From NCBI GenBank assembly GCA_021802125.1, contig JAKAAX010000004.1:4560-68559 (forward strand): 64,000 nt of DNA. The letters are read 5' to 3'. A program made the position numbers and the translations under genes. Positions 3,633 to 11,544 of the stretch are shown piece by piece. The notes below the pieces were generated by a model. The model made no database searches. It was not told where the DNA came from and saw only the letters and a list, made by a program, of their open reading frames with translations. The stretch comes from Thermoplasmata archaeon (GTDB lineage: Archaea > Thermoplasmatota > Thermoplasmata > Lutacidiplasmatales > UBA184). Every line of letters begins with the position of its first letter. Position 1 is the stretch's first letter.

Positions 3633-4808
3633 ATGGAGGGTTCCCCCACGATCGAGGAGCGGAGGCTGCGGGACATCCAGGAGGGATCGACCCCCATCCG
3701 TTGCACCGCCCGTGTCCTTTCCGCCGAGCTTCGGGAGGTCCCGAAGAAGGACGGGTCCGGCCGGGTGAAGGTCCTGTCCGGCCTCCTCTCGGACGGCTCG
3801 GCCACGATGCGCTTCAGCTGGTGGGACCCCCCGACTGCCGCGGAGATCGAGCGCGGGACCGTGCTGCGCGTGACGAACCCGCGGGTGCGAAGCTGGAACG
3901 ACCGGCGGGAGCTCAGCTTCGGATGGAAGACCCAGGTCGAGCTCGCGAGCGAGATGGAGCTCCCGCGGCTCGAGGACCACGAGTTCATCACGAGGACCGT
4001 GGCCGACCTTCGGCCCGGTGACGAGGGGCTTCACCTCCTGGTCCGGGTGCTCTTCTCCGAGCCTCGACGTCTGCGAGTGGGCGAGCGCGAACGCGCGATA
4101 CGCTCCGGGCTCCTCGCCGACACCTCCGGCCGCGTCCCGTTCACGGCCTGGACCGATCTCGACCTTCCGGCCGGTGCGGTCGTCGAGCTCTTCGGGGCGT
4201 ACGTGCGGAGCTACCAGGGCGAGCTCCAGGTGTCCCTCGACGAGCGGACCCGGGTGGAGCGGCGGGAGGACAGCGCGCTCGGCCAAGTCACCGGACCCGA
4301 GGGGGACCTTCCCGCCGAGATCGGGCTTCTCGAAGAGCGGGCTCACGGGGGACGGCAGGTCATCGAGGGTGTGGTCGTGGAGGTCCGCTCGCCGAGCGGT
4401 CTGGTCTACCGGTGCCCCGAGTGCTCCCGCAGCCTCGCCAAGGGGATCTGCCGCGAGCACGGAACGGTCCGGGGGGAGCCGGACCTCCGGGCGCGCCTCG
4501 TGCTGGACGACGGGACGGGAACCTTGACGGCCCAGGTCCCGCGCCCGATGGTCGAAGAGCTCCTGGGCATGGACCTGGGGAAGGCCCTCGAGATGGCCCG
4601 AGAGAAGTTGGACGCCGGCGCGGTCCAGGAGCTTCTCGTCGAGCGGGTCGTAGGTCGGAGGGTGCGCCTGATGGGCCGCCCGGTGCCCGGAGAGTGGGGG
4701 CTGACGTTCTTCGTCGACCGGACGCTCCCCGTCCCCGCCTGGGCGGAACGCGAGGCTCAGCGGCTGCTCGACCACCCTGAGGCCGCGCTGCGGGAGGACC
4801 CCGCATGA
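3633..4808 (+). CDS. rpa: Replication protein A (single-stranded DNA-binding protein; one OB fold plus C4 zinc ribbon, Rpa3-like)
   Basis: About 391 aa from the ATG at 3633. An in-frame ATG at 3402 is possible, but the added N-terminus is low-complexity. OB-fold region and zinc ribbon YRCPECSRSLAKGICREHG. The track ORF 2145..4808 further upstream is GC-shadow overlapping pyrF. Confidence 0.7.
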   Translation: MEGSPTIEERRLRDIQEGSTPIRCTARVLSAELREVPKKDGSGRVKVLSGLLSDGSATMRFSWWDPPTAAEIERGTVLRVTNPRVRSWNDRRELSFGWKTQVELASEMELPRLEDHEFITRTVADLRPGDEGLHLLVRVLFSEPRRLRVGERERAIRSGLLADTSGRVPFTAWTDLDLPAGAVVELFGAYVRSYQGELQVSLDERTRVERREDSALGQVTGPEGDLPAEIGLLEERAHGGRQVIEGVVVEVRSPSGLVYRCPECSRSLAKGICREHGTVRGEPDLRARLVLDDGTGTLTAQVPRPMVEELLGMDLGKALEMAREKLDAGAVQELLVERVVGRRVRLMGRPVPGEWGLTFFVDRTLPVPAWAEREAQRLLDHPEAALREDPA

Positions 4809-5542
4809 CTTCTATGCAGCCATCCTCGGGAGGCCCGAACGCGCCTGCGGGTGGAACTGCGGAGACGCGGCCCGATGGAGGGCGCCCGGGCGACGGTCGC
4901 CCGACTCGCCCCCGTGAGGTCGCCTGGCGGATCTTTGCCCACGAGCTCACCTCGTCCTCCCTGCAGGAGCGCGGGGAAGGAGAGAAGGCGACGACCCATG
5001 TCCTGACCCCGTTGGGTGCCCGGGTGGGCCGACTGCTGATGGTCGGTTCCCTCGGCCAGATCGAGCGCGTGGGAGAAGGGCCCATCCCGCTCTGGCGCAG
5101 TCGTCTCAGCGACCCCACGGGCGGGGTCTCCGTCACCGCCGGCTCCTACCACCCCCGTGCGGCCGCGTTCCTCGCGCAGGCGAAGGCGCCGGTGCGGGCG
5201 GTCGTGGTCGGCAAGCCTCACCTCTTCGTCGGGCGGGAAGGGGTCCCGGTCGTCTCCGTTCGCGCGGAGGTCATCGCCCCCGTCGGTCCGCTGGAGGAAC
5301 GGGCCTGGGTGGTGGAGACCGCCCGCGAGACCCTTCGGCGCATCGCCCTCTCCGTGGAGCTTGCGTCGCGGTCCTCCGAAGGCGCCACCCTCGACCCCGC
5401 GCGTCCCCTCCCGGGATTCCCACGTCGGCTCGTGGCCTCGGCGGTTGCGGTCCGGGGGCGTTACCCGGCCCCGGAACCCGAGAGGTTCCGAGCTCCGGTC
5501 CTGACGGCCTTGCGGGCTGTCGTGTCGTCCGCCGCCTCGTAG
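4805..5542 (+). CDS. RPA-associated protein (COG3390/RPAP-like OB-fold protein), hypothetical
   Basis: 245 aa. Start overlaps the RPA stop (ATGA), indicating translational coupling. The rpa-rpap operon arrangement is known in Euryarchaeota. The beta-rich region AWRIFAHELTSS..HVLTPLGARVGRLLMVGSL fits an OB fold. N-terminal 40 aa are low-complexity. Confidence 0.4.
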   Translation: MTSMQPSSGGPNAPAGGTAETRPDGGRPGDGRPTRPREVAWRIFAHELTSSSLQERGEGEKATTHVLTPLGARVGRLLMVGSLGQIERVGEGPIPLWRSRLSDPTGGVSVTAGSYHPRAAAFLAQAKAPVRAVVVGKPHLFVGREGVPVVSVRAEVIAPVGPLEERAWVVETARETLRRIALSVELASRSSEGATLDPARPLPGFPRRLVASAVAVRGRYPAPEPERFRAPVLTALRAVVSSAAS

Positions 5543-5654: not shown

Positions 5655-8255
5655 GTGGAAGCCCTTGCGGCGGGCGGTCCGCGAGGTCCGGAGGCCTGCC
5701 CCGGCCGTCCGGAGGCCTCCCGTCAGCTCTACGAGGCGATCGGCCGCGCCCGGGAGGGACGCGGATCGACATGGCTCCTGACCGGTGCACCGGGGATAGG
5801 CAAGTCGTTCTTCCTCGACTGGGTCGCCAAGGAGGCCGCCGGAGCCGGCTTCGGTGTGCTGCGGTGCGGTTTCCCCGACCGGGCGGCGCCTCCGCTCGCA
5901 CCCCTCACCAAGGCGCTCGACGGTCTCGTGGACGGCGGCGGGGATCGGCCCCACGGCCCCCGCGCCCCTACGCCCCCCGCGCTGACGATCCTCTCGCACA
6001 TCCGCGCGCTCATTCGAGCGACCGCGGAGCGCCCGGTCGCCCTCCTCCTCGACGATGCGCACCGTGCGGACCCCGAGTCGGTCATCGCCTTCCAGCTCTT
6101 CTCCCGGGCGTTCGGTGGGCTGCGCGGGATCATGGTCGGCACCCTCGCGGACCGCACCGTCGAGGACGGCCCGGAAGGGGGACCTCTCTGGGAACGGACC
6201 CTGGAGCTCCTGAGCGACGAGGGGACGATCCGCAGGCTCCCGCTCGAGGGATTGGACGGGCCGGCATGTCGTGGGGTCATCGAGGATGCGGCGGGAGGGG
6301 AGCTCTCCGGCCCGGAAGGCGACGAGCTCGTGGAGGGGCTCGTCGCCCGCACCGGCGGCAACCCGCTCTTCCTGAGGGAGATTGTGACGTTGCTCAAGGA
6401 CCAGCATCAGCTCCTGGTGGAGGGGGGAAAGCTGCGGCTCTCCCCGGTCCCGTTCGTCGAGGGTGGGAGCCCTATCGGAGGCGGATGGGGCAGGTTCCCC
6501 CTCCCCCCGACGCTGCGTCGTCTCGTCCTCTCACGTCTGGACCATGTCCTTCCCGCGGACCTGCTGCTGCTCCAGACCGCGGCTCTGATCGGGGGACCCT
6601 TCGACCTGCTCCCGCTGGTCGGCGTACTCTCCAGGACCCTGCGGGACGTCCGCGCGACCTGCCGAGACCTGGAACGCCTGGGTCTCGTTCGCCCCTGCGG
6701 GGGCACGGAAACGACGGCGGCGGGGGCGGGCGAAGCCGGCGAGGAGGCCTGGGAGTTCTCGCACGACCTGGTCTGGGAGGTGGTCCTACGGGACGCCTCC
6801 AACTCGGACCTGCGAACCACGTCGCGGAAGCTGGCGGGATGGTGGAGCGCGAACCGCCCCGAGGAGGTGGAGACCATCGCCCGCCTTTTCCACGACGCAC
6901 AGGAGCCCCTCGAGGGTCTTGCGCACGTCCGGGAGGCCATCGATCGCGCGCTTCGCAGCGAAGCGACGGCGGCGGCGGAGACGTACTTCCGGTGGTACTT
7001 CGACCTGCTCGCCCTCGTGGGGGACCGACATGGGGAACTCCCCCGAGAGGCCCTCGGGCTCGTGGACGGACTGCTCGTGCGCCGTCTGCGCCGTGAGACT
7101 CTGGCGGTGCTCGAGGAGCTGGAGAGGGCCTACCCGTCCGAAGAGATGCATTGGGAGGTGGGCTGGCGGCAGGTCCACGTGCTGGTCTCCTTCGACCTGA
7201 CGCAGGCGGAACGGAAGCTCGACGAGCTCTCCCGAGAGCTCGAGACCGTCACGAACGACCGTCGAGGGGTGCGACCGGCCCAGCTGGCCTTCGTTCGATG
7301 CGAGGTGCTGGGGGCCCGGCTGCGGTGGCCGGAGTCCATCGCGGCGGGGATCGAGTCGCTCGCGTTGTGGGGGGATCTCAGTTCCGCCTGGGAGAAGGGC
7401 CGCACGTTGTACGAGGTCGGATGGGCCCAGCTGATGCTCGGCCGCCTGCCGGCCGCCCGGGAGTTCTTGGAGGAGCTGAGGGCCTTGACCCTGCGCACCG
7501 AGGCCCCGGCTCTGATGGCCACGAGCCTCGTCTTTGAAGGGACCCTCTCGCTGATGGAGGGGAACCTGCGGGCCGCGTCGCGGGCCTACGAGGAGGCCAG
7601 CACCCGTCTTCTCGAGCTGGGCGCAATGGAGGGGTACGGCATCGCGAAGAACAACCTCGCCGAGGTCCTGGTCCACCAGGGGAAGCTGGAGGAGGCCCGA
7701 GCGGCGCTCGCGGAGGCCGAGCTGGTGGGCGGCCGCTTTGGCTACCCTCGAGTGGTCCAGGGATGCGCCCTGAAGTGGGCGTGGCTGGATGCTTTCGAGG
7801 GCCGCTGGGCCGACGCGCTCCTTGCCCTCGAGGACGCCCAGAAAGGCGCGCGCGACGGGGACTTCGATGAGGAGCTCCTCGAATCCCAGCTCCTCCACGC
7901 GTGGGCCGTCGGTTGCGCCGGGGCCCCCGAGGTCGGGCTCCGGGAGCTTGAGACCGTCCGGAAGGCGTCGGAGAAGCTCCAACCCCACGTTCGCCCCTGC
8001 CTCTTCCGGGTCGAGGGTGAGCTACTAGAGCTCGCGGGCCGCCCAGGTGCCCGAGAAGCGCTGGAGCGTTCGCTCGAGTCCGCGCGACGTTTCTCCGGTC
8101 CCGAGGGACAGGCCGGTGCGCTCCGTTCGATCGCACGCTGGGAGCGGCGGCACGGGGGCATCCAGGCCGCGGAAAAAGCGGAAGCCGAGGCCTCGCGGAT
8201 CCTGGGTGGGACGGGCGGGGAGGGCGGGGGAAGGCCCCCCCTGCCTCACGGATGA
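5655..8255 (+). CDS. STAND-class AAA ATPase (AAA_16-like P-loop NTPase) with C-terminal TPR/alpha-solenoid region
   Basis: 866 aa, GTG start. Walker A LLTGAPGIGKS, Walker B LLLDDAHRAD, then a long alpha-helical repeat region. No HTH or effector domain recognised. Confidence 0.7.
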   Translation: MEALAAGGPRGPEACPGRPEASRQLYEAIGRAREGRGSTWLLTGAPGIGKSFFLDWVAKEAAGAGFGVLRCGFPDRAAPPLAPLTKALDGLVDGGGDRPHGPRAPTPPALTILSHIRALIRATAERPVALLLDDAHRADPESVIAFQLFSRAFGGLRGIMVGTLADRTVEDGPEGGPLWERTLELLSDEGTIRRLPLEGLDGPACRGVIEDAAGGELSGPEGDELVEGLVARTGGNPLFLREIVTLLKDQHQLLVEGGKLRLSPVPFVEGGSPIGGGWGRFPLPPTLRRLVLSRLDHVLPADLLLLQTAALIGGPFDLLPLVGVLSRTLRDVRATCRDLERLGLVRPCGGTETTAAGAGEAGEEAWEFSHDLVWEVVLRDASNSDLRTTSRKLAGWWSANRPEEVETIARLFHDAQEPLEGLAHVREAIDRALRSEATAAAETYFRWYFDLLALVGDRHGELPREALGLVDGLLVRRLRRETLAVLEELERAYPSEEMHWEVGWRQVHVLVSFDLTQAERKLDELSRELETVTNDRRGVRPAQLAFVRCEVLGARLRWPESIAAGIESLALWGDLSSAWEKGRTLYEVGWAQLMLGRLPAAREFLEELRALTLRTEAPALMATSLVFEGTLSLMEGNLRAASRAYEEASTRLLELGAMEGYGIAKNNLAEVLVHQGKLEEARAALAEAELVGGRFGYPRVVQGCALKWAWLDAFEGRWADALLALEDAQKGARDGDFDEELLESQLLHAWAVGCAGAPEVGLRELETVRKASEKLQPHVRPCLFRVEGELLELAGRPGAREALERSLESARRFSGPEGQAGALRSIARWERRHGGIQAAEKAEAEASRILGGTGGEGGGRPPLPHG

Positions 8256-8286
8256 GGCTCCCCGGACTCGGCGCCTCGATTCGTAG

Positions 8287-8294
8287 TATTTATA
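8287..8294 (+). promoter_or_regulatory. TATA box (TATTTATA) positioned to drive the C/D-box sRNA
   Basis: AT-rich octamer in otherwise GC-rich DNA. Its centre lies about 26 nt upstream of the predicted sRNA 5' end (8317). Confidence 0.4.
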
Positions 8295-8316
8295 CCCCCT
8301 TCTGTTTGCGCGGCCT

Positions 8317-8377
8317 CGGGGATGATGAGCACCTGTCTCGCCGATCTGGTGAAGAGACCTGCGACGTTCTGACCCAG
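8317..8377 (+). ncRNA. Candidate C/D-box sRNA (2'-O-methylation guide)
   Basis: About 61 nt. C box AUGAUGA (8322-8328), D box CUGA (8369-8372), terminal stem GGG(8318-8320)/CCC(8373-8375). Internal degenerate D' (CCGA 8341-8344) and C' (UGGUGA 8347-8352) boxes. Guide-length spacers of about 12-13 nt. Confidence 0.45.
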
Positions 8378-8396
8378 GGCACTACACACTGCGTAC

Positions 8397-9311
8397 ATGG
8401 CCGAACGACCTGAGAAATTCCCCTGGCTGGGGTTCATCGTACTCGCCGTCATTCTCGTGGCCTCCGCCGGAGGCGGATACTACGCGATCACCCAGACGGT
8501 GCTCAAGCCCAAGCCGGCGCCCAGCGTCCTGATCGTGTCGGAGGGGGACAACGTCACAGTGAACTACGTCGGGATATTCGGCAGTGGCATCGACAAGGGG
8601 AAGGTCTTCGACACCTCCCTGCTCTCCGTCGCACGCGACAACGCCAGCTGGCCGAAGGCGTTGAGCTTCGGCTTCCGGGGCGCGAGCGGGTACACGCCGC
8701 TCAAGGCCCACGTGGGCCCGCAGTCGTTCGGCTCCTACACCAGCCTCATAACCGGGTTCTGGACCGCGATGGTCGGTCTCCCCGGGAACCAGACGATCAC
8801 CACGGTCATCCCCCCCGGCCAGGGGTACGGGTTTGCCGATCCCGCGAAGATCATGACCTTCCCGATGAAGCAGACCGTCCCGATGCTCTACACCTACACC
8901 CCAGCGCAGTTCGCCTCCACCTACTCGGGGATCCCCGCGCAGCCCCTCGAGACGTTCCTCGACCCGCATTGGGGCTGGAACGACACGATCCTTTCCGTGA
9001 ACTCCACGGCCGTGGTTCTCGAGTACACTCCGAACGTGGGGGAGCACATCAGCCCCCTGGGATGGACGGACGTCGTGACCGGGGTCAGCAACACGGTGAG
9101 CCCGACGGGCTTGATCACCTTCGTCAACGACCTCGTCCCGCTCGACGTGGGACAGGTCCAGGGCGTGGACTGGCAGCAGGGTGGCGGGCAGTTCTACCTC
9201 ACGAACGTCAACCCGACGGCGGGCACCTACACCCTCGACTTCAACACCGAGGTCACCGGCAACACCCTGATCTTCGAGATCACGGTCGTCGACATCCTGC
9301 CCCCGGCCTGA
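8397..9311 (+). CDS. Membrane-anchored FKBP-type peptidyl-prolyl cis-trans isomerase-like secreted protein
   Basis: 304 aa. N-terminal signal-anchor (FIVLAVILVASAGGGYY), FKBP-like segment VTVNYVGIFGSGIDKGKVFDTS, several N-x-S/T sequons. Confidence 0.65.
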   Translation: MAERPEKFPWLGFIVLAVILVASAGGGYYAITQTVLKPKPAPSVLIVSEGDNVTVNYVGIFGSGIDKGKVFDTSLLSVARDNASWPKALSFGFRGASGYTPLKAHVGPQSFGSYTSLITGFWTAMVGLPGNQTITTVIPPGQGYGFADPAKIMTFPMKQTVPMLYTYTPAQFASTYSGIPAQPLETFLDPHWGWNDTILSVNSTAVVLEYTPNVGEHISPLGWTDVVTGVSNTVSPTGLITFVNDLVPLDVGQVQGVDWQQGGGQFYLTNVNPTAGTYTLDFNTEVTGNTLIFEITVVDILPPA

Positions 9312-9384: not shown

Positions 9385-11544
9385 TCACCATAGCTGGACC
9401 TCTGGGGACGGAGGAGGGACCTCGGCAGGTCCTTCGAAGGGCGGGTCCTCAGGTTTCGGCGGAGGGCCCTTCACCATCTGACTTCGTCGACGTCGAAGGA
9501 GCACGGTCGCCGCGGCCAAGAGCAGGAGGGTGACCACGCCCACGACAAGCAGGAGGATGAACGGCCACGTCGGCGGGCCCGTGATGGGAGGAGGAGGAAG
9601 AGCGGAGAAGCTGGCGGAGAGCGTCCCGTTCCCCGAGACCGAGACCGTGGCGTTCAACCCGTTCACCGACTCCAGCACCAACCCACCGGAGACCGACCAG
9701 CCCAGGAAATTGCGTCCGGCGCAGAGCGACACCGTCGCGGGGTAGGTGCCGATGGGAACCGCCACGCTCGGGGACGGGCTGTAGGGAGGCTGCGAATCGA
9801 AGGGACTCCCGTTGAAGGTGACCGGTCCACAGGACGCGGGCACGACCACGAGCGTGACCAGCGGGTAGTCCTCGAAGATGGCCAGCAGGGTCCCGTTGGC
9901 CGAGACCGTAACCGTTGTTGGACTGCTCGCGATCGGGGAGACGCTCACCCCGCTCGCCCCTGACCAGCCGGCAAAGATGTGCGCTTGGCACGCGCGGATC
10001 CCGGCGGTGTAGGCCCCTGGGACCCAGGGGTTCATGTCGTACCCGTTCGAGGCCTCGAGCGTGCCATCGAAAGTGATCGGCCCACAACTGCCGGGCCGAA
10101 CGAGGAACTGGACGATGGGGTACGGGGAGAACGCCACCTCGAGCGAGGCGCTCCCGCCGACCGTCACTCCACCCGCTCCCAAGGACGCAGCTCCCGTGGC
10201 CGTGATCTGCCCCAGCGCCCAGCCGGGCGCAGGTTGGGCGGAGAGCGGGAGCGTCCAGCCCTCGAAGAACCATCCCGTCGCTCCGGACCCGAACACTCCC
10301 CCGCTCTGGGAGCCGCCCAGACGTGGCGGTGCGTTGACCGCGAGAACCCCGTGCCCGGCGGTGACCACGACCTGCACGGGCCAGGCCGGGAACCCGTAGG
10401 TCTCTCCGCAGTACGTCGCCGCACCCCGACAGCCGGGGTCCGTCAGGACCGCGAAGCCGTCGACGGGGTCATCCGCGAGGGGGCCCTCCATCCCCGGCAG
10501 GGTCGAGGGGAACGCTCCCAGAGCGGGGTCGGTCAGGTTCTTCCAGGCCCCGCTAGAGTACGTCCACGTCTCGTTGAGGTCGCTTCGACCGAGCGAATCG
10601 GTGGGCCGGCCGTAGACCATGACCACTGCCCGGAGGCTCGAGACGTAGGCGAGGTCCACGTCCTGCCGAGGGGTCGGGGCGTAGGTCAGGTTGAGCGAGC
10701 TCCAGGTCCCGTTCCGGAAGGTCCAGGTGGTGGACTGGCGACCGGCAGAGTCGTTCCAGAACCCGAAGAAGACCACGTAGCCGTCGCTGACGTCGTAGGT
10801 GAGCTCGACGTCGGCGTTCGGGCTCGGGATGACCTTCGAGGGCGGCAGCGGCGTCCACGTTCCCCCGCGATAGGTCCAGGTGGTCGTCCACGGTGAGGAA
10901 TAGGTCTGGAAACCTCCGTACATCACGATGTATCCGTCCGCGGCGTCGTAGGTCATCCCCGCGTCCGTCGCCGGTGGGGGTGTTGCCTTGAGGGTCGGGG
11001 TCAGGTTCGTCCAGGTGCCGTGCGAGAACTTCCACGTGTCCCCCAGGACGACCGAGCCCGACTCCCCTCCGAAGAGGAGCACGTAGCCATCGGCGGCGTC
11101 GAACGCCATCGCGGTTTCTTGTCGAGGCGACGGAGCCGTGCTCGTCACGAGGCTGGTCCACGTACCCGCGCGGTACGTCCAGGTGGTGCCGGTCTCGTCG
11201 AAGAGAACTTCGTAGCCATCCGCGGCGTCCCACGCCATCGCTCCCGTGAGACCCCCGGGTCCGGAATCGTTGTTCGCGAGCTCGACGGGGGTCCACGCCG
11301 GCGAGGCGAGCGCCGCAGAAGCCGGTCGGTCGAGCTCCGCCGGGAGACTCGCGGTCCGGATTCCCGCGGGGAGCGCCCTGCTGCTCCGTTCTACGGAGAC
11401 GGTCGGGACGGACTGGCCCGCGGGATGCGAGGCCGCCACCAGGTCATTGTTCGAGGAGAACAGGAGTAGAAGGAGGATCAGCAGCGCCGTCACTGAGACC
11501 GGTCCCACGTCGCGCGTTACGGTTCCGCGGGCGACCGTGGACAT
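9385..11544 (-). CDS. Kelch-repeat (beta-propeller) cell-surface glycoprotein with C-terminal TM anchor
   Basis: 719 aa. N-terminal hydrophobic signal. Six or more repeats of the DGY(V/I)(V/L)(L/F)FGG...DTWT(Y/F)..GTW(T/S)NLT type. Beta-sandwich-like Cys-containing region. C-terminal TM (FILLLVVGVVTLLLLAAATVLL) followed by RRRR and a Pro-rich tail. More than 10 N-glycosylation sequons. Confidence 0.75.
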   Translation of the reverse strand: MSTVARGTVTRDVGPVSVTALLILLLLLFSSNNDLVAASHPAGQSVPTVSVERSSRALPAGIRTASLPAELDRPASAALASPAWTPVELANNDSGPGGLTGAMAWDAADGYEVLFDETGTTWTYRAGTWTSLVTSTAPSPRQETAMAFDAADGYVLLFGGESGSVVLGDTWKFSHGTWTNLTPTLKATPPPATDAGMTYDAADGYIVMYGGFQTYSSPWTTTWTYRGGTWTPLPPSKVIPSPNADVELTYDVSDGYVVFFGFWNDSAGRQSTTWTFRNGTWSSLNLTYAPTPRQDVDLAYVSSLRAVVMVYGRPTDSLGRSDLNETWTYSSGAWKNLTDPALGAFPSTLPGMEGPLADDPVDGFAVLTDPGCRGAATYCGETYGFPAWPVQVVVTAGHGVLAVNAPPRLGGSQSGGVFGSGATGWFFEGWTLPLSAQPAPGWALGQITATGAASLGAGGVTVGGSASLEVAFSPYPIVQFLVRPGSCGPITFDGTLEASNGYDMNPWVPGAYTAGIRACQAHIFAGWSGASGVSVSPIASSPTTVTVSANGTLLAIFEDYPLVTLVVVPASCGPVTFNGSPFDSQPPYSPSPSVAVPIGTYPATVSLCAGRNFLGWSVSGGLVLESVNGLNATVSVSGNGTLSASFSALPPPPITGPPTWPFILLLVVGVVTLLLLAAATVLLRRRRSQMVKGPPPKPEDPPFEGPAEVPPPSPEVQLW

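Follow-up and report, generated by a model that had tools for sequence, protein, structure and literature searches.

A candidate small RNA (sRNA) gene was examined on the forward strand of a 64,000-nucleotide stretch of DNA (contig JAKAAX010000004.1 of assembly GCA_021802125.1), the whole of which is referred to here as the window. The element lies between the gene of an ATPase and that of a membrane-anchored FKBP-like protein. It is very probably a box C/D sRNA gene of an uncultured, high-GC Thermoplasmata archaeon, and would guide methylation within helix 93 of 23S rRNA. An archaeal C/D sRNA had been proposed here in an earlier note on this DNA; nine orthologous loci and a D' guide that is antisense to helix 93 support that proposal.

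The gap between the stop codon of the ATPase gene (which ends at 8255) and the ATG of the FKBP-like gene (8397) measures 141 nt (8256–8396), and the box C/D unit fills 58 nt of it (8318–8375, + strand). The earlier note had described a compact unit of about 61 nt in a 140-nt intergenic region; the unit is indeed there, but both lengths needed slight correction. It opens with GGG (8318–8320), which pairs with CCC (8373–8375) to form the terminal stem. The last residue of the GGGG run (8318–8321), G8321, is the first loop nucleotide of the predicted kink-turn (k-turn). The C box AUGAUGA (8322–8328) is followed by the 12-nt D' guide GCACCUGUCUCG (8329–8340), which is antisense to 23S helix 93 and in which U8336 is the N+5 nucleotide. 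The D' box CCGA (8341–8344), the variable loop UCUG of the kink-loop (k-loop; 8345–8348) and the C' box GUGAAGA (8349–8355) separate this guide from the 13-nt D guide GACCUGCGACGUU (8356–8368), which runs into the D box CUGA (8369–8372). The C and D boxes and the GGG/CCC stem were found exactly where the earlier note had placed them, as were the degenerate D' and C' boxes, claimed with guide spacers of 12–13 nt and measured at 12 and 13 nt. Upstream sits a TATA octamer TATTTATA (8287–8294, +; core ATTTATA, 8288–8294), the promoter of the sRNA and probably of the FKBP-like gene too. Its centre is 26–27 nt before the first G of the stem, in agreement with the 26 nt first reported. Downstream, the unconserved 21-nt spacer that leads to the start codon (8376–8396, +) contains neither a TATA box nor a T-run terminator. 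The features by which an archaeal C/D sRNA is recognised in sequence are all present, namely C and D boxes, D' and C' boxes, a terminal stem, spacers of about 12 nt and the pairs that mark a k-turn: tandem G·A pairs, a 3b/3n pair with a U, and Watson–Crick pairing of C-box nucleotide 6 with D-box nucleotide 1.

This architecture was encoded as a regular expression (RUGAnGA, 10–14 nt, CnGA, 2–8 nt, UGAnGA, 10–14 nt, CUGA, plus a 3-bp terminal stem). Scanning both strands of the window gave one match; none was obtained in 200 dinucleotide-preserving shuffles or in 652 kb of related archaeal DNA. The Rfam check suggested in the earlier note was also run. The top match of 4227 families in the whole window was RF00095 (snoPyro_CD, from Pyrococcus) at 29.8 bits, with an E-value of 0.034 over 64 kb and of 1.3e-4 over a 251-nt region. 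The model aligned end to end and without gaps (58/58 positions), the stem, the four boxes and the spacer lengths all agreeing, and ten more archaeal C/D families matched the same coordinates under E-value reporting. The curated gathering threshold of snoPyro_CD is 45 bits, so the element is not filed in the Pyrococcus family and shares its architecture only; the guides of the two are unrelated. Because Rfam models are lineage-specific and the element draws the best, if sub-threshold, match in the window, we do not regard the missing covariance-model hit as decisive against an sRNA. Neither the Rfam E-value scan nor the regular expression revealed further C/D sRNAs in the 64 kb.

Conservation across nine loci

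Nine loci were compared (alignment A1), the window and eight lineages fetched around FKBP-like homologues. In these nine Thermoplasmata lineages the box C/D unit stands directly upstream of the FKBP-like gene, over a range of protein identity from 36 to 100%; the eight lineages other than the window run from 78% down to 36% identity and from 57 to 72% G+C. Every GA dinucleotide of the four boxes is invariant in all nine. The D box is CUGA throughout. The C box follows RUGA[U/G/A]GA, with U2, G3, A4, G6 and A7 invariant and U, G or A at position 5. Position 5 is the 3b position of the k-turn, which is free to vary; here it faces the invariant U of CUGA. The D' box has the consensus C[C/A]GA (C1, G3 and A4 invariant) and the C' box RUGAnGA (UGA[A/U/C]GA; U, G, A, G and A invariant). 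The Watson–Crick pairs C6:D1 and C'6:D'1 are each G–C in nine of nine. The D'–C' loop (3–4 nt) is unconserved in sequence, as are both flanks of the unit.

Spacer lengths are similarly constrained. The D' spacer is 12 nt at every locus and the D spacer 13 nt, with a single instance of 14 nt (L262). Positions 2–11 of the D' guide are invariant (10 of 12), a higher degree of conservation than in parts of the boxes. In the D guide GA (positions 13–12) and GCGAC (positions 8–4) are invariant, with positions 9–11 and 1–3 varying. The terminal stem comprises 3–6 bp, alignment columns 2–6 pairing with 60–64 in all orthologues. Compensatory changes are seen at three pairs, from G–C to C–G beside the boxes (L007) and from G–C to U–A further out; 91.7% of the stem cells are paired, a value attained in none of 500 column shuffles. 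RNAalifold, given no structure, recovers the identical stem. As judged from the alignment, this pattern of conservation is that of a C/D sRNA; promoters and coding regions are conserved differently.

A chance resemblance, or a pseudogene decaying within a conserved promoter region, would fit with the sub-threshold Rfam score and with a fold that is not unusually stable. We consider such an origin extremely unlikely, however, given that no match occurs in the 200 shuffles, that the unit persists through nine lineages, even where the protein encoded next to it is only 36% identical, between flanks that are not conserved, that the terminal stem covaries and that the rRNA sequence predicted by the guide was found (see below).

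RNAalifold additionally pairs GUCUC of the D' guide (8336–8340) with GAGAC (8354–8358), columns 21–25 with 40–44 of A1, the latter being the C' box's final GA and the D guide's first three nucleotides. All but one of these positions are invariant, hence no covariation is observed. Pairing of GAGA with UCUC inside the sRNA may account for part of the conservation of the D guide, specifically its invariant first GA.

The G+C content of the 64-kb window is about 68%, and its products include a class I (archaeal) CCA-adding enzyme and DUF835 and DUF929 proteins. Relatives of the FKBP-like protein are labelled Thermoplasmata archaeon or Euryarchaeota archaeon by their sources. Judged from these window proteins and the names of the homologues, the host of the sRNA locus is an archaeon. 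The identical region also occurs on contig DAIFFN010000082.1 of an NCBI metagenome-assembled genome (MAG; GCA_027376565.1) and in more than 20 further assemblies.

Promoter and apparent leader position

ATTTATA is found 32–35 nt before the C box at all nine loci (as ATATATA in L264), and the bases in between are not conserved. The motif occurs once in the 64-kb window, both strands counted, against an expectation of 0.02, and no consensus TATA box other than that of the sRNA/FKBP promoter is present there. An archaeal TATA box usually precedes the transcription start by about 25 nt; with the box at this distance, the terminal stem would supply the first nucleotides of the transcript. The 5' end is accordingly put at about 8317–8318, a prediction from the TATA distance only.

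Between the sRNA stem and the FKBP-like start codon lie 11–33 nt of unrelated sequence in the orthologues, and no AT-rich box or T-run was found in these spacers at the nine loci. Such short, unconserved spacers lacking a TATA box argue that one promoter drives both, and the TATA box probably serves the sRNA and the FKBP-like gene alike. The earlier note had credited the sRNA with a TATA box of its own: a box at promoter distance is indeed present at nine loci, but it is probably not private, the FKBP-like gene sharing the promoter. As neither a promoter nor a terminator intervenes before the start codon, the sRNA is apparently the 5' leader of the FKBP-like mRNA and co-transcribed with it, to judge from the layout of these loci. 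The linkage survives changes in the upstream neighbour, which may be a STAND ATPase, a DUF3311 protein, a Kelch/PKD protein or others. As summarised in PMC7994747, Tripp et al. (2017) found that only some 20% of the C/D sRNA genes of archaea are equipped with their own promoter, that many of them have a gene 25 nt away or less and that these RNAs mature by trimming of longer transcripts back to protein-protected k-turns. The leader arrangement agrees with that account of promoter sharing and trimming.

The two most distant homologues examined (L269 and L270) have no sRNA and carry a TATA-like box about 25–30 nt before the ATG. These boxes, CCTTTAAGG and CCTTTATATCC (within L269:1300–1503 and L270:1454–1503), give the gene a leaderless arrangement, and it is the interval between TATA box and ATG that the sRNA occupies in the clade that has it. 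We note that in one orthologue (L262:1501–1690, JGI Ga0326724_0000655) the deposited 363-residue FKBP-like protein begins upstream of the TATA box and spans the whole sRNA. This N-terminal extension is probably false, the true start being the ATG 11 nt after the sRNA.

The FKBP-like gene itself (8397–9311, +) encodes a membrane-anchored protein of 304 aa with a weak Pfam FKBP_C match (18.5 bits), homologues of which are annotated as FKBP-type peptidyl-prolyl isomerase in Thermoplasmata MAGs. The upstream neighbour (5655–8255, +) encodes an 866-aa STAND-type ATPase with AAA_16 and a MalT-like TPR region (TPR_MalT); the downstream neighbour (9385–11544, −) encodes a Kelch-repeat protein of 719 aa, anchored to the membrane at its C terminus. 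Neither the ATPase nor the Kelch protein is linked to the sRNA in other lineages. The related lineage L270 encodes fibrillarin. There the fibrillarin gene (PF01269, the methyltransferase of C/D ribonucleoproteins (RNPs); 788–1453) adjoins the FKBP-like gene (1501–2346) on its upstream side at a distance of 47 nt; the FKBP-like protein is 38% identical, the sRNA is absent and, this being one case, the adjacency may be coincidental.

The leader position raises the question of whether the element acts in cis only, its two k-turns being L7Ae sites in a 5' untranslated region (UTR) that regulate how the FKBP-like mRNA is translated or how stable it is, and no guide acting in trans. In nine of nine orthologues that bear it the element indeed lies between the TATA box and the FKBP ATG, 11–33 nt from the latter, and the distant homologues that are free of it have their TATA box about 25–30 nt before the ATG. 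PMC5539422 reports binding of L7Ae to k-turns in 5' UTRs, with translational repression, in Sulfolobus. An L7Ae site needs a single k-turn, however, whereas two motifs are present here, 12–13 nt apart, which is the geometry of a C/D sRNP. Furthermore, the D' guide spacer is the most conserved part of the element (10 of 12 positions invariant) and is perfectly antisense to a lineage-specific variant of 23S helix 93. We consider an exclusively cis-acting leader improbable; a role in cis could coexist with the guide role.

Guide sequences and 23S rRNA helix 93

Archaeal 23S helix 93 reads GUCG[C/U]GAGACAGGU, or in longer form GACCGUCG[C/U]GAGACAGGU[C/U]GG (alignment of Dennis et al. 2015, PMC4644070). 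The D' guide of the window is antisense to CGAGACAGGU, which corresponds to E. coli 2596–2605 (numbering checked on E. coli rrlH). The invariant C at guide position 11 predicted a G at E. coli position 2606, which was absent from eight reference rRNAs (seven archaea and E. coli). A G at 2606 requires that the 2588–2606 pair be flipped. When metagenomes were scanned for such a variant (query TGGGTTNNNNCCGTCGNGAGACAGGTG), at least 120 archaeal 23S loci reading CGAGACAGGUGU were found. The matched loci read UUUACACCGUCG[C/U]GAGACAGGUGUGUUGC, so that the pair is flipped to C2588–G2606. In L142–L261 (for example L221:2693–2725) the flipped pair closes helix 93, UUUACACC...GGUGU, in place of G–C. 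Nine variant loci checked with Rfam are full-length archaeal large-subunit (LSU) rRNA.

With the variant 23S the D' guide forms 12 of 12 pairs (11 Watson–Crick and a terminal G–U) at −22.1 kcal/mol. The helix 93 site was the best in every 23S tested, the next best scoring −16 to −18, and only 10 of 5000 shuffled guides equalled the score. All nine orthologous D' guides form 10–12 contiguous pairs around the N+5 site. The duplex covers 23S 2596–2607 (E. coli numbering), that is, the loop and the 3' strand of helix 93. By the N+5 rule U8336 lies opposite A2600 (E. coli), around nt 2648 of the variant 23S genes and two residues from A2602. Methylation is held to require a 10–12 bp duplex and a Watson–Crick pair at N+5 (PMC6009581). 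Pairing of the D' guide with rRNA, longer than the minimum of 9–10 bp asked of a guide and including a Watson–Crick pair at N+5, is present for rRNA taken from another contig or assembly. The complementarity to helix 93 is observed directly; methylation of A2600 is predicted from it.

The match between guide and target relies on class-level taxonomy, G+C content, a shared sample and the success of the 2606 prediction, and together these suggest that the two belong to the same kind of organism. PntA–23S synteny and cluster accessions, used to join the sRNA and a 23S gene within one assembly, led as far as identity at class level. The flanks have 65–75% G+C in most of the 120 listed loci. A PntA protein encoded beside the 23S matches, at 100% identity, a protein listed by NCBI under 'Thermoplasmata archaeon', a label shared by every named relative. 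One variant 23S match and the sRNA locus L010 were both recovered from a single Yellowstone metagenome (Ga0080006). If the assignment is correct, GAGACAGGUG or CGAGACAGGUG[U] would be expected as helix 93 in genomes that carry the sRNA, GCA_027376565.1 included.

The variant 23S genes are not linked to 16S: among the 120 listed loci, motifs of 16S rRNA were seen in only 2, each belonging to a lineage of lower G+C. Thermoplasma is known to have rRNA genes that are unlinked (PMC3608112). In L162, L219 and L266–L268 the 23S gene stands alone, without a 16S within 8–19 kb, and shares a neighbourhood composed of an RNase_H_2-like gene, a glycosyltransferase, a DNA methylase, a DAO oxidoreductase and pntA-pntB. 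Spurious short open reading frames have been called inside or beside the rRNA (L267:3901–4275 and 4574–4918). The 23S gene at L197:1264–4569 is 3306 nt long, against about 2940 nt in relatives, from which an insert of some 365 nt is deduced; it may be an rRNA intron. ARAGORN calls a 96-nt tRNA-SeC(TCA) near the 23S at L164:5154–5249 (−) and L191:4480–4575 (+). In that lineage the rRNA has 62% G+C and the flanks about 39%, and the call may represent either a true selenocysteine tRNA or a tRNA that contains an intron.

Other partners of the D' guide were considered. A second near-match, UGACACAGGUGC (L221, around nt 1703–1714; E. coli 23S around 1611–1622), is kept in all 23S examined. It offers 8 contiguous pairs, including the 5' GC of the guide, followed by a C·C mismatch at guide position 4, beside N+5. 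A pair of adjacent targets for the two guides near E. coli 23S 2364 (GCGAGCAGGUGCGAAAGCAGGUC) was rejected, since a scan for GAGACAGGTGC N{0,15} GTCGCAGGTC gave six bacterial non-rRNA matches, about the number expected by chance. Helix 34 of 16S rRNA was likewise set aside: E. coli 16S 1041–1051 (11 nt) does show perfect complementarity with the guide core, but the archaeal 16S consensus there is GCUGAGAGGAGGUGCAUGG or GAGAGGAGGUGCAUGG, so this complementarity is coincidental. Two Thermoplasmata-related 16S genes gave no match to the D' guide at helix 34. Viral contigs, considered as a source of archaeal rRNA, yielded one chance match that is not rRNA.

According to the earlier note both guides can be matched to rRNA. 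This was borne out for the D' guide; the D guide is without a significant 23S match. Its invariant GCGAC(G) is antisense to CGUCGC (2591–2596), directly 5' of the D' target, over 5–7 bp; side by side, both guides would cover helix 93 completely, as 17 uninterrupted nt. A real C/D sRNP might on this basis act mainly as a chaperone of rRNA folding, or on another substrate, leaving A2600 unmethylated. Besides the tiled 17 nt, the cooperative or bridging action of two guides discussed in PMC7994747 would favour this, as would the related guides of Sulfolobus and Ignicoccus, which are offset by one nucleotide. The D' duplex nevertheless satisfies all the published methylation rules (10–12 bp, Watson–Crick N+5; PMC6009581), and the pairing of the D guide with helix 93 extends over only 5–7 bp. 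We consider a mainly chaperoning or other role, with A2600 left unmethylated, improbable.

Several further D targets were examined, most of which were rejected. A site in the 23S helix 91 loop found no match in the metagenomes (GGGGCTGTCGCWGGTCCCAAGGGT). Pairing with helix 93 with five nucleotides bulged (GUCG + CAGGUC) fits the crenarchaeal sequence only; it was dropped because position 2606 is G in the Thermoplasmata type and guide positions 9–11 vary, leaving only the GCGAC:GUCGC pairing. Sites at 23S ~1765 (GGUCGCAGUGAC, the Sac-sR2 site), ~905 (UCGCAGGU) and 2457 (GUCGCGGG) and at 16S 1405–1410 (GUCGCA) were discarded, as they give 6–8 bp, are inconsistent across orthologues and do not rise above shuffles. 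Two distant 16S genes contain no site that stands out. With its ends invariant and its middle variable, the D guide would suit nt 46–55 in the T-arm of a tRNA (GUCGC-nnG-UU, N+5 = U47), and a T-stem target has a precedent in Pyrobaculum (Pae sR64, G51). The sole lineage tRNA with GGUCGC examined, tRNA-Val(GAC), mismatches the D guide at 51–52. The D guide is at this stage an orphan with a conserved core.

Proposed function and related systems

Transcription would start about 25 nt downstream of ATTTATA, at the 5' strand of the terminal stem. In the transcript the GGG/CCC stem would close a k-turn made by the C and D boxes, and a k-loop would arise from the C' and D' boxes. L7Ae, Nop5 and fibrillarin would assemble on these motifs, to judge by all archaeal C/D sRNAs that have been studied, and the 3' end would presumably be made, as in other archaeal C/D sRNAs, by trimming back to the protein-protected k-turn. 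Pairing of the D' guide with helix 93 would then place fibrillarin opposite the fifth guide position, and A2600 would receive a 2'-O-methyl group.

Two known sRNAs address the same stretch of rRNA. Sac-sR3 of Sulfolobus acidocaldarius (Omer et al. 2000; sequence in PMC4644070) is likewise an archaeal dual-box C/D sRNA, with a guide ...AACCUGUCUCGG that is antisense to the same part of helix 93 (GAGACAGGU). It shares a 9-nt core, ACCUGUCUC, with the window guide. Sac-sR3 uses its D guide for helix 93, whereas the unit described here uses its D' guide; the Sac-sR3 guide is one nucleotide further from its box, so that N+5 is G2599 instead of A2600. Opposite 2606 Sac-sR3 has A (facing C2606), where the window has C (facing G2606). 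Its other guide is unrelated, its host is crenarchaeal and its genomic context is different. Iho-sR411 of Ignicoccus hospitalis (PMC4644070) has the guide GGACCUGUCUCAA, which also contains ACCUGUCUC, beside a CCGA box and with the same helix 93 target. Its register too is shifted by one (G2599), and it places G opposite C2606 where the Thermoplasmata guide places C opposite G2606. As read from these sequences, the difference is guide–target covariation between lineages. The base of helix 93 is itself a site of predicted modification, C/U2606 being the most widely shared predicted site of a seven-species study and the only one assigned methylation in all six of its thermophiles (PMC4644070). 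The guides concerned (Pca sR30, Tte sR152, Sac sR13, Mka sR3, Neq sR10 as well as Iho sR6) address the same helix of the peptidyl-transferase centre. That site is six nucleotides downstream of A2600, and in the Thermoplasmata-type 23S, with its flipped pair, the residue is G2606.

Several observations weigh against the assignment of the element as a helix 93 methylation guide. No Rfam family reaches its gathering score in the window, and the single-strand fold of the sRNA is no more stable than that of shuffles (z = 0.22). Unremarkable fold stability is usual for C/D sRNAs. The 64-kb window contains no fibrillarin, Nop5 or L7Ae gene. The 23S genes paired with the guide come from other contigs, and the predicted site, A2600, is one nucleotide off G2599, on which Sac-sR3 and Iho-sR411 are predicted to act. 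Nine 23S genes offer the D guide no significant site, its score being equalled by 4737 of 5000 shuffled guides. Finally, the RNA of about 58 nt, its RNP and the methyl group are all deduced from sequence. With these points taken into account, we still hold a box C/D sRNA that guides helix 93 methylation to be very probable.

A broader role for the transcript can be imagined, although we regard it as speculative and on balance unlikely. The sRNA would have been inserted between the TATA box and the ATG of a gene that is leaderless in relatives, giving a bifunctional transcript of which it is an obligatory component close to the promoter, and in which assembly and processing of the leader sRNP set the survival or translation of the FKBP-like mRNA. 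As the peptidyl-transferase centre is assembled, both guides may also keep helix 93 open, with A2600, and perhaps U2593, being methylated meanwhile. In such a joint action the loop and 3' strand of helix 93 may be bound by the D' guide, and its 5' strand by the invariant GCGAC of the D guide.

The general understanding of C/D RNP function is unaltered by this locus. Mildly new are the clade, the change at 2606, matched between guide and rRNA, and the leader position that is conserved ahead of a membrane FKBP-like gene. Annotation of C/D sRNAs is poor in archaea, and Thermoplasmata have hardly any on record; no C/D sRNA catalogue in the literature searched covers that class. The recognition of this sRNA exposes an annotation error in a deposited protein (L262), and the locus offers a conserved case of an sRNA as apparent mRNA leader. 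Guide and target appear to have changed together, the 2588–2606 pair being flipped and the guide having the matching C. The locus provides a clean, conserved sRNA family for an uncultured clade of soil, peat and hot springs. It makes the concrete prediction that the helix 93 residue equivalent to A2600, which is two nucleotides away from the peptidyl-transferase residue A2602, is 2'-O-methyladenosine (Am).

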